Below are positions 1 through 4,612 of a stretch of 4,612 nt of DNA, piece after piece. The position numbers were made by a program, and so were the translations under genes. The notes below the pieces were generated by a model that was given only the letters and a program-made list of their open reading frames with translations, was not told the DNA's origin and searched no databases. How positions within the stretch are numbered: the stretch's first letter is position 1; the number at the start of each line of letters is the position of its first letter. The DNA is from a virus (taxonomy: Duplodnaviria; Heunggongvirae; Uroviricota; Caudoviricetes), in the IMG/VR virus record IMGVR_UViG_2660237951_000007, positions 1 through 4,612 of that record; one strand, written 5' to 3'.

Positions 1-182
1 GATTTGAGTTTGGGGTTTAGCGTGACAAGTTTGCGAGGGTGATCGGAGTAATCAGTGAACAGTTCGCCACCAACAATAACATCATAACCGTGGTTACGTG
101 TCGGTTGTCGCCCGTTATCCGTTCCTTCTGACCATGCCACCATATCCAGGAAAGCTTTACGCTGGGAATTTAGTGCCTGCAT
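1..182 (-). CDS. R: Endolysin, phage lambda R-type lytic transglycosylase; N-terminal 60 codons only, 3' end lies beyond the window start
   Basis: Absent from the supplied ORF track because it is truncated. Minus-strand translation from ATG at 182-180 reads MQALNSQRKAFLDMVAWSEGTDNGRQPTRNHGYDVIVGGELFTDYSDHPRKLVTLNPKLK, which matches the N-terminus of lambda R nearly residue for residue as I recall it, including the WSEGTD segment with the catalytic Glu. AGGAG (plus coords 189-193) sits 6 nt upstream of the ATG, inside the last codons of the preceding holin gene. Confidence 0.9.
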   Translation of the reverse strand, partial: MQALNSQRKAFLDMVAWSEGTDNGRQPTRNHGYDVIVGGELFTDYSDHPRKLVTLNPKLK

Positions 183-185
183 AAA

Positions 186-521
186 TTACTCCTTCGAGCT
201 ACCAAATTTGTTACCGATTACTCGCATTGCAGCCCCACGAATAGCATCGACACCGATCAGCCCCACGCCACCACCAATGGCAACAGAAAGCGATTTAGGC
301 CATCCGACATATTCAAGAGCGGATGCAAAGGTCAGCGTCAGAGCGCCACATAGCAAAATCTCGAGCGTTTTTCGCTTCCAGCCACCACCACCGCCAAAAT
401 AGGCGATGCGCAAACCAGCCATAACGATCGACATAATCACTGCACCCAGCGGTGTGTCTCCACGCCACCAGCTCTGAAACAACTCCAGCCAGTCCGGCCA
501 GGTATTTGGGTTATGAGGCAT
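186..521 (-). CDS. Class I holin, lambda S-like (about 111 aa from ATG at 521-519; the track ORF 186..617 is over-extended at its 5' end)
   Basis: Three hydrophobic segments (LGAVIMSIVMAGLRIAYF, TLEILLCGALTLTFASALEYVGW, SLSVAIGGGVGLIGVDAI) and a charged C-terminal tail. The N-terminus MPHNPN...MAGLRIAYFGGGG and the C-terminus GLIGVDAIRGAAMRVIGNK parallel lambda S (MPEKHD...AMAYLRGRYNGG and GYIGTDSIGSLIKRFAAKK, from memory). The stop TAA at 188-186 lies 3 nt before the R start, the classic S-R arrangement. The longer reading to 617 would overlap the methyltransferase stop codon and an intrinsic terminator, so the internal Met33 start is preferred. Confidence 0.75.
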   Translation of the reverse strand: MPHNPNTWPDWLELFQSWWRGDTPLGAVIMSIVMAGLRIAYFGGGGGWKRKTLEILLCGALTLTFASALEYVGWPKSLSVAIGGGVGLIGVDAIRGAAMRVIGNKFGSSKE

Positions 522-562
522 TTCGTCATCTCTCACCTCGCGATATTTGCGGGTGCTGTGTT

Positions 563-590
563 GGAAATAAAAAGGCCACGCAACGTGGCC
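563..590 (-). terminator. Rho-independent terminator directly downstream of the methyltransferase gene
   Basis: On the minus strand: GGCCACG-UUG-CGUGGCC (perfect 7-bp stem, plus coords 574-590) followed by UUUUUAUUUCC (plus 563-573). It begins 8 nt after the methyltransferase stop codon at 598-600. Confidence 0.6.
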
Positions 591-597
591 ACCAGAA

Positions 598-1650
598 TTA
601 TTTCCCCACCAGTTCACTTACCTCTTTCACCGTCTGATTAAACCGCTCTGACTCAAGTTCAACACCTAACGCCCGACGCCCCAGCGCCATTGCTGCTTTT
701 ATTGTGGAACCGGATCCCATAAAGAAATCAGCAACCAGATCACCAGGTCGACTACTGGCATTGATTATTTGCCGGAGCATATCCGCCGGTTTCTCGCACG
801 GATGTTTACCCGGGTAGAACTGAACGGGCTTATGCGTCCAGACATCGGTATAAGGCACGGAGACTGATACGGAGAAATAGCGCCGGAGAGATTTAAACTC
901 ATCCAGCAATTCAGAATATTTGCGATTCAGTGAATCATAAGATGCCACCAGCTGGTGGTGTGGTTGTTCCAGTTGTTGTTCCTGAAACTTCTCTGCCGCT
1001 ATACGGGAAAACAGTGCCTGTAACTTCCGATAGTCAGCCTCATTCGGCAACTGCCACTGACTGGCACCAAACCAGTGGGAAACCATATTTTTCTTACCTG
1101 TGGCTTCGGCAATTTGTTTTGCCGTTATACCCAGTTCGGCACGAGCATCCCTGAAATACGATATCAGCGGTGCCATTATGTGCTGTTTGAGTTCCCTTTC
1201 TTTTGCCGCATAGCCGTCACTTTTGCCGCGATATGGCCCCTGGTAATGTTCAGCAAACAGAACGCGCTCTGTGGCAGGAAAATATGCGCGCAGACTTTCT
1301 TTATTACACCCATTCCAACGTCCGGACGGCTTCGCCCAGATGATATGGTTAAGCACGTTGAAACGTTCACGCATCATGATCTCAATATCAGATGCCAGGC
1401 GATGCCCACAGAACAGGTAAAGGCTTCCGGCAGGTTTCAACACCCGCCAGAACTGGGCCAGACAGTGGTCCAGCCACTTAAGGTAATCTTCGTCCCCTTT
1501 CCACTGATTGTCCCAACCGTTAGGTTTCACCTTGAAGTAAGGCGGATCCGTAACAATAAGGTCGATGGTGTTATCTGGGAGGGTTGCGAGGTATTGCATG
1601 CAGTCAGCGTTGATAAGCTCAACACTGTTTATATTTACAGTATTTTTCAT
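598..1650 (-). CDS. DNA methyltransferase, beta-class N6-adenine/N4-cytosine family (DPPY motif; YhdJ-like), apparently orphan
   Basis: 350-aa ORF. Motif IV DPPY at residues 35-38 (plus coords 1537-1548) lies near the N-terminus and the AdoMet motif I FFMGSGST at residues 309-316 near the C-terminus; this IV-then-I order defines the beta group. N- and C-terminal blocks resemble E. coli YhdJ as I recall it (DLIVTDPPYF vs DLIFADPPYN; HPCEKPADMLRQIINASSRPGDLVADFFMGSGST vs [34 protein letters not shown]). No restriction endonuclease candidate is adjacent in the window. Confidence 0.88.
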   Translation of the reverse strand: MKNTVNINSVELINADCMQYLATLPDNTIDLIVTDPPYFKVKPNGWDNQWKGDEDYLKWLDHCLAQFWRVLKPAGSLYLFCGHRLASDIEIMMRERFNVLNHIIWAKPSGRWNGCNKESLRAYFPATERVLFAEHYQGPYRGKSDGYAAKERELKQHIMAPLISYFRDARAELGITAKQIAEATGKKNMVSHWFGASQWQLPNEADYRKLQALFSRIAAEKFQEQQLEQPHHQLVASYDSLNRKYSELLDEFKSLRRYFSVSVSVPYTDVWTHKPVQFYPGKHPCEKPADMLRQIINASSRPGDLVADFFMGSGSTIKAAMALGRRALGVELESERFNQTVKEVSELVGK

Positions 1651-1742
1651 AGATCCGTAAGCGTAACTCTGATAGGCTCACTATGCTTTTGCGCTAAAGC
1701 AGTGGGCCTTGGTTAGCTTGTGACCTGAAAGCATGAGCTAAT

Positions 1743-1773
1743 GGCTGGTTGGGTGCTACAACACCCACCAGCC
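1743..1773. repeat. Imperfect inverted repeat (12-bp arms, one bulged T, 6-nt spacer) in the intergenic region between the small ORF and the methyltransferase
   Basis: Plus strand GGCTGGTTGGGTG (1743-1755) ctacaa CACCCACCAGCC (1762-1773). The arms are reverse complements except for one extra T in the left arm. No U-tract follows on either strand, so it is not a canonical terminator. Confidence 0.55.
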
Positions 1774-1800
1774 GCCCATTTCCACAGCAGAATGCCCCCT

Positions 1801-1992
1801 TCAGTGGAGGCGTTTGTAACATCCAAACTGGTAATCTGATAACCCCGCCATAACCAGCTGCGTCAGGATGAGCTGGCATTTCTCTCGGCTTAGGTGCGTA
1901 TTCTGTGCAATTTCCCCAGCTGTCGCTGGTGAAGCGCTGAGTTCGTTAAAAACCGCTTTTGCTTCTTCTGTCATATAAGGTTGATTTTGCAT
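1801..1992 (-). CDS. Small (63 aa) winged-helix/HTH-like DNA-binding protein, family uncertain (PapI/FaeA-like pattern possible)
   Basis: ATG at 1992-1990 is preceded by AAGGGG (2005-2000) with a 7-nt spacer. The segment ATAGEIAQNTHLSREKCQLILTQLVMAGL has the helix-turn-recognition-helix spacing typical of small winged-helix regulators. The gene is co-oriented with and directly upstream of the methyltransferase gene. Confidence 0.55.
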   Translation of the reverse strand: MQNQPYMTEEAKAVFNELSASPATAGEIAQNTHLSREKCQLILTQLVMAGLSDYQFGCYKRLH

Positions 1993-2070
1993 GCCTTTTC
2001 CCCTTTTTTATCGTGTGACACACAGATAACTCTGGTTCATTTTTGCATCAAGCTTTAGATACAAAAGGCA

Positions 2071-2095
2071 TAAAAAAACCCCGCCGAGGCGAGGT
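2071..2095 (-). terminator. Promoter-proximal intrinsic terminator (tR'-like) between the Q-position gene and the cargo genes
   Basis: Minus-strand RNA CCUCGC-CUCG-GCGGGG (6-bp stem with one G-U pair and a tetraloop; plus coords 2079-2094) followed by seven U residues (plus 2072-2078). It lies about 30-55 nt downstream of the candidate promoter. Confidence 0.6.
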
Positions 2096-2103
2096 TAGAT
2101 ATA

Positions 2104-2160
2104 ATTATGACAAAATATAAAATTAGCTTCAAATATGGCTCATTTTGTTGCATTTTGCAA
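2104..2160 (-). promoter_or_regulatory. Candidate sigma70 late promoter (pR'-like) with downstream -10-like elements
   Basis: Minus-strand reading: TTGCAA (2160-2155), 17-nt spacer, CATATT (2137-2132). A second overlapping candidate is TTGAAG (2132-2127), 17-nt spacer, CATAAT (2109-2104). TATATT at 2119-2114 would fall at about +7 to +12 of the first promoter. The region is AT-rich and begins about 30 bp after the stop of the Q-position gene. Confidence 0.45.
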
Positions 2161-2190
2161 GCCCATTTGAGGGAGTTAGTGAAAGTTACC

Positions 2191-2883
2191 TCACATTTCC
2201 GCCACTTTCAGTTCTTGGTACTCTTCGTACCGTGACAAAATTTCGCTTAGTGCCTGGCTATCCATTTCAGCAAACGACGCTTTGAAAGCCGCCCAGTGGC
2301 CTGAATACACTCTGAGCCAGGTGGAACGCTCAACGCTGACCATGCGCGCCAGAGCTGCACCAGCATACTCCTGATAGGTATCGTTATTACGCGAGGCAGC
2401 AACTTCTTGCGCCGCCAGCCAGACAAGCCCTACCAGTTTTTTAGTGACGCGGCCCTGTATTTTTTTGCCGCTATGCTGACGCTGAAACTGTTCCCACACG
2501 TGCTGGCACATCAATGTCTGGTACCGGAAAGTAAGGTCATACCCATAGCAGTACCGCACCCATGCCTGCAAATGCTCACCCAGACCATTGACCGAACGAC
2601 GCCATGCTGAACAAGCGAACTCCGTATCTTTAATAGGCGGCAAAGGTCGACGACGGCTCCTTGTCTCAAGAACATAAAATGGAGTGGCCAGCGTTGTTAC
2701 AACCTTTGACCCACAACCTTCCCCACCCTCCATGACGATTTCAGGATGGTGCCGGGGGTATTTATTCTTATCTGCTGGTGGATGCTCACTGAACGCCTGC
2801 AGCTGTCCTTTTGTCGATCCTGATAAATCCGCCAGCGCGCGGCGCAGTTCAATCCGCGTATATTCCAGTTCTTGTAAATTCAT
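2191..2883 (-). CDS. Putative late-gene antiterminator at the Q position (non-lambda-Q family; assignment by synteny), 230 aa from ATG at 2883-2881
   Basis: An intact ORF directly downstream of a DUF968 gene and directly upstream of a promoter+terminator and lysis genes. This matches the ydfU-then-quuQ arrangement I recall for the E. coli K-12 Qin prophage. It shows no resemblance to lambda Q (no paired CxxC zinc-finger motifs). The track extends the ORF to a TTG at 2904; the ATG at 2883 has GGAG/GAG upstream and is preferred. Confidence 0.5.
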   Translation of the reverse strand: MNLQELEYTRIELRRALADLSGSTKGQLQAFSEHPPADKNKYPRHHPEIVMEGGEGCGSKVVTTLATPFYVLETRSRRRPLPPIKDTEFACSAWRRSVNGLGEHLQAWVRYCYGYDLTFRYQTLMCQHVWEQFQRQHSGKKIQGRVTKKLVGLVWLAAQEVAASRNNDTYQEYAGAALARMVSVERSTWLRVYSGHWAAFKASFAEMDSQALSEILSRYEEYQELKVAEM

Positions 2884-2904
2884 TATGCTCAGCGCTCCAT
2901 ACAA

Positions 2905-3966
2905 TTACGCTTTTGTTATTACGCCGATCGCCAGCGCTCGATTCATAAATCGGAATAGCAGCTCCAGCTGGGTACCGTGTTTTTTCTCGAACGCTGCAAC
3001 ATCAGCATGTAATTTGTCGTGACACTCTCTGCACAGAGGGATCACGAACAAATCGTGGGCTTTAGTGGCGGTACCGCCCATGCCGTGACCAATGACATGG
3101 TGTGGATCATCCGCTGGCCGCCGGCAACCTTCACAGGGCTGGGTTTTAGCCCACCGGGTATAGTCCTCATTCACCCACCTGCGGTGTTTTGGGCGCAACA
3201 TGAATGATTCAGGGGATTCAGGATCCGCATGCAGAGCCAGAACCTGTGGCTGGTCATAGGCCACTTCCTGATTTGTTCCATGCTTTAAATGCGCAGCCGT
3301 GACCGCAGGGGTGACCTTCTTCTGCAAAATGTTTTTTGTCGGTGGCATCGGCACAATGTCACTTTCGCGATATACGGATAAAAACGGCTCATCCGGTAAG
3401 CGAAGCGCATGCTGGGCCATCCTTTCCGTGATTGCATCAGCAATGCCTGAGTAAACGGCCCACCAGCACAATTCACCGAGGGATAGTTCACGCTCGTTGT
3501 TGTAGCCAAGCGAAGACAGGATAGAACTGATCAGCCAGTTAATGAGATTACGCCGGGCCAGTTCTGCCAGCGCCGCGGTGGTTTGCTCGCGCAGCTGGTT
3601 ATCGCAATGCCAACAGAGCAACATTGATCCAGGGGGATGTCGCATCGTTACCAGCTCATGATGGTGATAATTAGTGTGCGGGTACTGGCATTCCTTCACG
3701 TTACGCTCTAGCCAGGATTCCAACCCGGACAAACCGCCTGCTGCACGGATAACTCTCTCGTCGGTGAAGAATTCCTCGAGGGACTTATCTTCTGCCAGCG
3801 GCTGCCGGGCATCAGGGACGAGCCCCGACGGAAGCCCAGCCATGCTTTTTGGCTGAGGCTCCACCAGCACACGCCCCTGTTGAAACAAAGACATCAGTTC
3901 GCTACCCGGCTTTAACAGCACAAGCCCAAGGCGCGGAACAGTCTCGGCTGTAAACAGTCCTCTCAC
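2905..3966 (-). CDS. DUF968-family prophage protein with C-terminal HNH-like Cys/His motif (YdfU-like)
   Basis: 353-aa ORF. The C-terminal CEGCRRPADDPHHVIGHG...VIPLCRECHDKLH matches a CxxC...HH...CxxCH zinc/HNH-type motif. The GTG start at 3966-3964 overlaps the TGA of the upstream gene (GTGA) and is preceded by AAGGGG (3980-3975) with an 8-nt spacer. Family recall is from memory of lambdoid nin-region proteins. Confidence 0.75.
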   Translation of the reverse strand: MRGLFTAETVPRLGLVLLKPGSELMSLFQQGRVLVEPQPKSMAGLPSGLVPDARQPLAEDKSLEEFFTDERVIRAAGGLSGLESWLERNVKECQYPHTNYHHHELVTMRHPPGSMLLCWHCDNQLREQTTAALAELARRNLINWLISSILSSLGYNNERELSLGELCWWAVYSGIADAITERMAQHALRLPDEPFLSVYRESDIVPMPPTKNILQKKVTPAVTAAHLKHGTNQEVAYDQPQVLALHADPESPESFMLRPKHRRWVNEDYTRWAKTQPCEGCRRPADDPHHVIGHGMGGTATKAHDLFVIPLCRECHDKLHADVAAFEKKHGTQLELLFRFMNRALAIGVITKA

Positions 3967-4612
3967 GCGGCATGCCCCTTAGCGATGTGTGCCGTCCACA
4001 GGCCGCCGATCCACTCGATGCCTTTGGGTGTAAAACGTGCCTGGCTAAAGGCGTAGTTTGTTTCGCTCGTAGTGCCAGTTTTCACTTCAAACCGCCCGGC
4101 AGCAATGTGCTGGTGCCGAGGTGTCAGCACTCCACTGAGCCGGTACAAAATGCCGCTCTCAATGAGGAACAAGCGGAAATCGGTCTCTTTGGCCTGCAAC
4201 AGCTTTGCCACCTGGCGGAAAGACATTGAGCCTTTGGCAGTACAATATCGATCGACAAACTCAACTTTCGGCGCGGCAGCGGCTAACTGCTGGCTGAGTT
4301 GTTCTTTCTGCTCGGCCAGATCCGCGGCGAGACGTAATGCCTCCGGCAATGTTTGCGGGACACTTACGGCCTGGCTGTTCTCCAGCTCTTGCCAGCGATC
4401 GACAACAGCGGCGGTAAATTCTGGCGACAGCCTGGCGACGATCACCAGAGAATCACGTTTGTTAAACCAATACTCCTCGTAGGTTTGCCCGTTTTGCGGG
4501 TGTGTGTAGGGGGTGTGCGCCAACGGCGCGGTTAAAATACCAGCAGATGCAAGGCGCTCAGCTGAGCGCTTCACATCACCATGTTTGCTCTGCACCAGCC
4601 TGGCAATTTCAC
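3963..4612 (-). CDS. Rha-family phage regulatory protein with C-terminal KilA-C/ANT (antirepressor-like) domain; 5' end beyond the window
   Basis: The N-terminal part (EIARLVQSKHGDVKRSAERL ... TYEEYWFNKRDSLVIVARLSPEFTAAVVDRWQELE) follows the Rha pattern. The C-terminal part (FRQVAKLLQAKETDFRLFLIESGILYR...GRFEVKTG...FTPKGIEWIGGLW) follows the KilA-C/ANT pattern. The reading frame stays open upstream of the track's GTG at 4595 to the window edge, so the true start is outside the window. Confidence 0.8.
   Translation of the reverse strand, partial: EIARLVQSKHGDVKRSAERLASAGILTAPLAHTPYTHPQNGQTYEEYWFNKRDSLVIVARLSPEFTAAVVDRWQELENSQAVSVPQTLPEALRLAADLAEQKEQLSQQLAAAAPKVEFVDRYCTAKGSMSFRQVAKLLQAKETDFRLFLIESGILYRLSGVLTPRHQHIAAGRFEVKTGTTSETNYAFSQARFTPKGIEWIGGLWTAHIAKGHAA

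Follow-up and report, generated by a model that had tools for sequence, protein, structure and literature searches.

The window analyzed here, a 4,612-nucleotide stretch of Caudoviricetes DNA (positions 1 to 4,612 of the IMG/VR virus record IMGVR_UViG_2660237951_000007), contains on its minus strand a complete gene (598..1650) for a 350-aa beta-class N6-adenine methyltransferase of the M.EcoGII family, as identified by open reading frame (ORF) calling, Pfam search and alignment, and, upstream of it, a small ORF and a conserved structured element. Judging from its relatives, the gene probably (at roughly 85%) encodes an intact orthologue of M.EcoGII, which would belong to the late operon of a lambdoid prophage, methylate adenine irrespective of the sequence context and protect the progeny DNA. 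The homology, the motifs, the predicted fold and the gene order were established in the analysis, and the non-specificity, the dimeric action and the anti-restriction role are properties expected from the characterized relatives. Both the M.EcoGII family and its architecture are already published, and neither the specificity nor the architecture of the ORF is novel.

The methyltransferase gene and its relation to M.EcoGII

M.EcoGII was described as a 349-aa beta-class enzyme from a "very large family" present in E. coli prophages (PMC5778455); its accession is EGT69837.1 (PMC11551740), its source is E. coli O104:H4 C227-11, and it has a paralogue, M.EcoGI. Any-context adenine methylation was demonstrated for M.EcoGII, M.EcoGI and reconstructed ancestors (PMC5778455, PMC11551740), and the substrates of M.EcoGII include single-stranded DNA (ssDNA), RNA and DNA:RNA hybrids (PMC5778455). 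Every reconstructed ancestor acted on both DNA and RNA, and no RNA motif was seen for Anc291 and SUPREM (Ochiai et al. 2024, PMC11551740).

The alignment of the window ORF with M.EcoGII had no gaps, with 282 of the 348 positions identical (81%) and 92% positives. By domain, the identity was 87% in residues 1–134, 77% in the target-recognition domain (TRD; residues 160–237), 72–73% in the linkers and 80% in residues 260–349. In the dimer-interface segments (97–110 and 116–140) the same residue was present at 37 of the 39 positions, the differences being N98S and V130I. The M.EcoGII sequence used for this comparison (P0135) was taken from Supplementary Table S1 of PMC11551740 as text obtained by optical character recognition (OCR), in which three errors were corrected. 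The corrected sequence matched exactly a 349-aa protein whose accessions include AFS73976.1 and AKE83937.1 (UniRef representative A0A0E0Y1D5_ECO1C). The raw OCR text and four other corrected variants had no exact match in the collection. Both accessions are from the O104:H4 outbreak strains.

The identity of the window ORF to the reconstructed enzymes reached at least 88.5% for Anc291, at least 86.8% for Anc289 and at least 71.6% for SUPREM/Anc284, these values being lower bounds for published sequences read by OCR, and in the same OCR-derived text the ORF was collinear with Anc291, Anc289 and SUPREM save for a few single-position gaps. Unlike these synthetic sequences the window ORF is natural, and at position 179 it has Q, as in the M.EcoGII clade, in contrast to SUPREM with E179 and a higher RNA activity. 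Because of its closeness to M.EcoGII and to the reconstructed ancestors, the ORF falls inside a sequence space bracketed by non-specific enzymes. The original prediction could not tell whether the ORF belongs with M.EcoGII; the gap-free alignment, together with the shared gene order described below, answered this question in the affirmative.

The exact protein encoded by the ORF is deposited as WP_060659146.1/KUG79558.1, and its residues 29–341 matched PF01555 with E = 1.3e-42 and 146.6 bits (cut-off 26.7). The catalytic motif IV, DPPY (residues 35–38; 1537..1548, minus strand), was invariant in 137 family members, while the AdoMet-binding motif I, FFMGSGST (residues 309–316; 703..726, minus strand), included FMGSG at residues 310–314. 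The conserved core resumes at the motif HPCEKP (residues 283–288; 787..804, minus strand), an equivalent of HPTQKP in YhdJ and M.RsrI, whose H283, C285, E286 and K287 were invariant in the family alignment. This alignment comprised 137 homologues with 51–96% identity and used the window ORF as the reference row, so all of the 55 invariant positions listed are present in the ORF by construction. The motif order is that of the beta class, with DPPY N-terminal, the TRD central and FxGxG C-terminal, and the Rossmann-fold core could be superimposed on the solved beta-class members. The ORF shared with M.EcoGII the length (350 vs. 349 aa), the motifs, the predicted type of TRD and helical linker, and the location in a lambdoid prophage; the collinear full-length homology, the predicted helix-turn-helix (HTH) four-helix-bundle TRD and linker, the dimer segments and the prophage location all agree with membership in the M.EcoGII family.

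Other characterized groups were more distant. The ORF scored 108.1 bits against the YhdJ equivalog NF008572 (cut-off 292), and this in two separate end stretches, and 67 bits against the CcrM equivalog NF050803 (cut-off 830). The alpha-class M.HaeV/Hia5 group (Drozdz et al.) is also phage-borne, relaxed in specificity and presumed to be anti-restriction (PMC5778455), but has the reverse motif order, with FxGxG first and DPPY last, indicating a convergent function and not a homologous architecture. The 90% cluster has 4060 member sequences, and of 5426 complete E. coli genomes, 1244 carried the gene, for the most part with 95–99% identity.

The central target-recognition region

The original prediction had placed DPPY at residues 35–38 and FFMGSGST at 309–316, both of them correctly, had pointed out an HTH-like stretch (residues 173–194) and had estimated a spacing between motifs IV and I of about 270 residues, some 80 more than in YhdJ. 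The actual spacing was 273 residues vs. 180 in YhdJ of MG1655 (DPPY at 40, motif I Asp at 220), a difference of 93. YhdJ is a compact beta-class enzyme with 25% identity to the window ORF and is grouped with M.RsrI, M.MboIIA, M.BceJIV and CcrM. The extra residues did not, however, represent an insertion into a YhdJ-like TRD; they belong to a different type of TRD with its linker, which is gap-free family-wide. Sequence matches to all solved beta-class enzymes ended at about residues 115–154 and restarted at about 269–283. The original assignment of the central region as the target-recognition part was correct.

This AlphaFold model of M.EcoGII consists of a Rossmann core (residues 1–134 and 260–349) and an HTH four-helix-bundle TRD at residues 160–237 (PMC11551740). 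The AlphaFold2 (AF2) model of the window protein, made with the 137-sequence alignment, had a predicted local distance difference test score (pLDDT) of 85.7 and a predicted TM score of 0.75, while a single-sequence prediction (pLDDT 39.7) was unusable. Helices were predicted at residues 146–158, 160–173, 177–184, 190–194, 204–220 and 231–254, in agreement with the published helix pattern, and the model was confident from residue 160 to 250, with block means of pLDDT of 88–96. The predicted four-helix-bundle TRD (940..1173, minus strand) had the same boundaries, 160–237, as in the M.EcoGII model. Within it, the HTH stretch LGITAKQIAEATGKKNMVSHWF (residues 173–194; 1069..1134, minus strand), recognized by the AF2 helices and the family conservation, would correspond to helix 2, turn and helix 3 of the TRD, with a helix at 177–184, a turn at 185–189 and a second helix at 190–194, which upheld, at the level of a predicted model, the presence of an HTH in the central region. 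The same stretch gave Pfam matches to HTH_3 (E = 0.004–0.012) and Pou (E = 0.03), both below the cut-off, and a TRD-only hidden Markov model (HMM) search against PDB sequences matched no solved structure. The TRD is followed by a long predicted interdomain helix (residues 231–254; 889..960, minus strand), linking back to the catalytic core and corresponding to the linker reported for M.EcoGII (PMC11551740); residues 238–259 were 73% identical to those of M.EcoGII.

According to the proposed mechanism, the N-terminal (about 1–134) and C-terminal (about 260–350) parts would form a single Rossmann catalytic core with DPPY and FxGxG, and the approximately 125 residues between the two halves would serve this family as its own module for binding nucleic acids, a four-helix bundle that includes a Cro/C1-like HTH (160–237) and is joined by charged helical linkers. 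For M.EcoGII, this module has been proposed to make non-specific contacts with the backbone of DNA or RNA.

An HTH-containing TRD might instead read one defined sequence, in which case the ORF would be a site-specific adenine methyltransferase. Cluster members are named "site-specific DNA-methyltransferase" (PGAP) in their sources, although databases apply this name generically and not on experimental grounds. Among the enzymes whose site has been confirmed, M.PflMI (CCANNNNNTGG) is the nearest; it was compared here by description only, and its overall predicted structure, TRD type included, is reportedly similar. It is, however, only 27% identical to M.EcoGII and lacks the long, flexible, charged interdomain linker of the latter (PMC11551740), which the window ORF retains gap-free. 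Although 23% of the TRD residues differ from M.EcoGII, the ORF is placed in sequence between M.EcoGII and the motif-free reconstructed ancestors. Furthermore, M189, S191, H192, W193, F194, Q198, W199 and P202, located in the second helix of the HTH (helix 3) and in the loop behind it, were invariant among the 137 members, which is unexpected for diversifying specificities and fits better with a conserved, sequence-independent contact. Site-specificity was therefore considered very unlikely. With respect to the "novel or relaxed" specificity suggested originally, the relaxed part is the likely outcome by family membership, and the novel part did not hold for an architecture that is already published (PMC11551740). 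Finding a conserved TRD of a characterized enzyme with a known site had been named as the refutation of this suggestion; the central region does appear to be such a conserved TRD, but the characterized enzyme in question has no specific site.

Gene order, expected timing and biological role

All genes of the window, which corresponds in reverse orientation to the entire 4612-bp E. coli contig LLYC01000010.1 (assembly GCA_001484085.1), are located on the minus strand, and the Pfam matches placed the methyltransferase in a prophage, flanked by Q, DUF968, Ant and holin genes. In the direction of transcription, a truncated Ant/KilAC antirepressor gene (3963..4595, minus strand) is followed by a gene located between ant and Q (2905..3966, minus strand), whose 353-aa DUF968 product had a weak HNH-like match at its C-terminus, and by the gene of the late antiterminator Q (2191..2883, minus strand; Phage_antiter_Q, E = 4.6e-41), 230 aa as called, with the longest ORF extending to 2904. 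A strong intrinsic terminator at the tR' position (2077..2096, minus strand), with an 8-bp stem (AACCTCGC/GCGGGGTT) followed by T7, is located approximately 95 nt past the Q stop, and a candidate pR' of the sigma-70 type, TTGAAG-17-CATAAT (2104..2132, minus strand), is weak, with 9 of 12 matches and an upstream TG. The methyltransferase is the second ORF after this tR'-like terminator. Between its stop and the holin start there is a terminator-like hairpin, GGCCACG/CGTGGCC, with a T-run (574..590, minus strand), and the 111-aa holin S (186..521, minus strand; Phage_holin_3_1, E = 5.9e-27) is the first gene of the lysis cassette. A 143-aa ORF with a GTG start (186–617, minus strand) was rejected as an over-extension of the holin, since both the Pfam match and the gene calls put the start at 521. 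The tRNA scan found no tRNA in the window.

The Q stop-terminator interval (2077–2160, minus strand) could give a small pR'-tR' transcript, positioned like the lambdoid late leader RNAs; a weak Rfam match to istR nearby (E = 0.045) was mostly due to the terminator.

In lambdoid phages, the genes beyond Q, pR' and tR' are transcribed only once Q modifies RNA polymerase after induction. The placement of the methyltransferase gene fits expression only after induction, and its position downstream of Q and the tR'-like terminator would provide a testable explanation for the silence of M.EcoGII-type enzymes in lysogens. M.EcoGII was silent in its native lysogen, and its overexpression from a plasmid slowed growth (PMC5778455). 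Under the proposed mechanism, the methyltransferase would be transcribed only by the Q-modified RNA polymerase post-induction, remaining silent and harmless in the lysogen, and the replicating phage DNA would be methylated ahead of packaging, shielding the progeny from the restriction systems of the next host.

The gene order around M.EcoGII was compared by means of two of its close relatives, one from phage 1720a-02, with 93% identity, and the other P0021, which represents the 90% cluster of M.EcoGII. In both, the methyltransferase is preceded by an antiterminator gene, a small ORF of the phrog_331 type and the structured spacer also present in the window. The antiterminator belongs to PF06323 (Phage_antiter_Q) in the window and to PF03589 in the P0021 context, where, moreover, extra genes precede the lysis genes, in contrast to the holin directly following the methyltransferase in the window; in phage 1720a-02 the methyltransferase is followed by stx2 instead. 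The DUF968-antiterminator order recurs in locus L006, the P0021 context. In a distant Vibrio relative (about 57% identity), the holin-lysozyme genes come immediately after the methyltransferase.

The ORF might instead be a prophage gene in decay or already inactive, serving no function today. In favor of this reading, M.EcoGII is not expressed in its native lysogen and many prophages are cryptic, and the window, a 4.6-kb contig, is too short to judge the integrity of its prophage. The reading frame is, however, full-length, the cluster with its thousands of members and the wide occurrence in E. coli genomes speak against decay, and the gene is also present in sequenced phages, such as SfV, mEp460 and cdtI, which were among the 144 phage records matched by the region in a megablast search. 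In addition, a 20-kb metagenome contig with the identical protein (L003) has an intact repressor, cro, replication genes, Q and lysis genes, which altogether made the decay explanation extremely improbable. On the same contig, upstream of ant (3717–6981), a 444-aa Dam-family (PF05869) and a 645-aa C5 DNA_methylase are encoded, bringing the number of methyltransferases in one phage to three.

Protection of progeny DNA from restriction was proposed by Murray et al. A non-specific enzyme may nevertheless have been selected for something other than, or not only for, this function, such as RNA methylation, disturbance of replication, repair or transcription in the host cell while the phage grows lytically, or a DNA packaging mark. 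The activity of M.EcoGII on ssDNA, RNA and hybrids, the slowed host growth upon overexpression, the Dam-family and C5 methyltransferases already present in the L003 version of the prophage, and the unusually elaborate elements upstream of the gene (small ORF and structured element, see below) are in line with such roles, and the evidence of this analysis does not separate them from restriction protection. M.EcoGII does, however, shield DNA from many restriction enzymes in vitro (PMC5778455), and a site before the lysis and packaging genes fits with progeny protection, so that a different selected role appeared unlikely.

Several points weigh against the interpretation of the gene as a late-expressed, non-specific M.EcoGII orthologue. 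The HTH was assigned from a predicted model and from HMM matches that stayed below the threshold, the fold searches did not isolate the TRD domain, and of the 66 substitutions relative to M.EcoGII over the 348 positions, 18 are in the TRD. M.PflMI, albeit remote and linkerless, demonstrates that site-specificity is compatible with this overall fold. The promoter-like sites did not exceed the shuffle expectation (2 found vs. 2.5 expected), making the placement of pR' uncertain, and the late timing, deduced from the context, and the anti-restriction role are both inferences.

A conserved structured element and a small ORF upstream of the gene

The 150-nt spacer (1651–1800) between the methyltransferase gene and the small ORF upstream of it, orf63, contains a conserved covarying structure associated almost exclusively with genes of the M.EcoGII family. 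Its core (1684..1778), recognized by covariation and a covariance model, pairs best on the plus strand, i.e., antisense to the gene, and includes a hairpin (1684–1701) and a three-way junction made of a closing helix (1703–1707/1774–1778) and two hairpins (1713–1741 and 1743–1773). Among diverged loci, the nucleotide identity of the spacer was 81–98%, vs. 71–73% for orf63 and 76–80% for the methyltransferase gene. The alignments contained four helices: the closing helix, with invariant UGGGC/GCCCA, the 12-bp hairpin, the second hairpin and the flanking hairpin. The sequence of the 12-bp hairpin was wholly different in the Salmonella-type loci, with the pairing retained, for which reason a short ORF (1694..1879, minus strand) was rejected as the cause of the spacer conservation.

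In the covariation alignment of 51 distinct sequences, which was fitted to the model, 83.9% of the cells paired, vs. 65% in shuffles and 27–39% with slid partners, and 250 cells with double changes were present against 81 expected; the observed values were reached in none of the 500 shuffles. A MAFFT-only alignment also yielded three of these helices, again supported by compensatory changes, out of the four. In related loci, including those of the Vibrio type, the covariance model placed the element next to the methyltransferase gene in 97 of 99 and in 68 of 100 cases (165 of 199). In the reverse approach, a motif-first scan with a single genome for each species, 37 of the 52 matches were confirmed by the model, and the methyltransferase was adjacent, in the same arrangement, in 36 of these 37, while the remaining 15 matches, from unrelated phyla, were due to chance. 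The sole model-confirmed copy with no methyltransferase detected in its 8-kb locus (L204, 3865–4000, from Erwinia psidii) may be a remnant of gene loss. No Rfam family matched 1684–1778 at the gathering score; the best sub-threshold match in a permissive scan was to P26 (20.3 bits vs. 36, E = 0.11).

The assignment of the strand followed from several comparisons. On the sense strand, 114 A-C mismatches stood against 39 G-U pairs, the minimum free energy (MFE) was lower for the antisense strand in 55 of 65 sequences, and RNAalifold applied to the same alignment gave -21.7 kcal/mol for the antisense vs. -10.2 for the sense strand. These values outweighed the model with the methyltransferase-sense strand (R1). 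The second model (R2) inherited the register errors of MAFFT, and its paired fraction of 78% is not comparable with R1. The single-sequence MFE structure of 1682–1786 on the plus strand coincided exactly with the consensus (-47.4 kcal/mol, z = -4.4), while that of the sense strand differed. A candidate extended -10 promoter element for an antisense transcript, TGaTAGGCT (1670..1678, plus strand), was suggested by conservation: the T, A and final T of its hexamer were invariant in alignment A8, and TGnTAnnnT occurred in 67 of 82 distinct sequences, a count that is partly circular, as 37 of these entered the set via a pattern containing TAGGCTC. The generic promoter scan did not report this candidate. 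The element could act as a cis-antisense RNA against the methyltransferase leader; alternatively, it could be a sense leader, or its long hairpin could be a DNA operator for the product of the small ORF.

The small ORF itself, orf63 (63 aa; 1801..1992, minus strand), belongs to phrog_331 (E = 2.6e-29) and, apart from this, had only weak winged-helix matches in Pfam (DprA_WH and TrmB), below the cut-off. A strict HMM detected an ORF of this type ahead of the methyltransferase in 103 of 184 loci, an iterated HMM in 133 of 183, and the pairing was seen in phage 1720a-02, in the P0021 context and in a Salmonella prophage, regardless of the antiterminator family. The ORF is conserved upstream of the methyltransferase in E. 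coli, Salmonella and probably Vibrio-type prophages, and its product may be a partner or regulator of the enzyme. The hhalign comparison of two groups of small ORFs was circular, the profiles having already been merged, and was disregarded. In the Vibrio-type locus L007 (4862–4987) and in 10 others like it, the methyltransferase is preceded at a distance of 13 nt by an ORF for a 41-aa zinc-ribbon protein, for which Mu Com was the best match in Pfam (E = 0.0016, below the cut-off).

In the phage Mu com-mom system, a toxic DNA-modifying late gene is under translational control, and lambda OOP, P22 sar and P1 c4 are examples of phage cis-antisense RNAs. By analogy, limited to the upstream element, the methyltransferase would resemble com-mom as a toxic DNA-modifying enzyme of the late operon behind a dedicated post-transcriptional control, although neither sequence nor Rfam relates the element to com-mom, OOP, sar or c4. 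At about even odds, the phrog_331 protein and the approximately 100-nt structured RNA, the latter probably transcribed antisense to the 5' leader from the extended -10 promoter, form a hitherto undescribed control module distributed from Enterobacteriaceae to Vibrionaceae, for which Mu com/mom or type I antitoxin RNAs offer an analogy; the module would hold the toxic enzyme off in lysogens or time its lytic expression.

The methyltransferase of the window represents one more natural variant of M.EcoGII, and what appeared as its odd central region would be the normal DNA-binding domain of the family. Its position after Q and a tR'-like terminator gives a simple account of the silence in lysogens that was only presumed in the original papers, and the linkage with the element and the small ORF suggests a dedicated control of a toxic, promiscuous enzyme. 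MadID, BIND&MODIFY and chromatin footprinting already employ M.EcoGII as a reagent; should the proposed control be confirmed, the element would count as a novel regulatory RNA of phages and might be exploited to control the expression of M.EcoGII-type tools.

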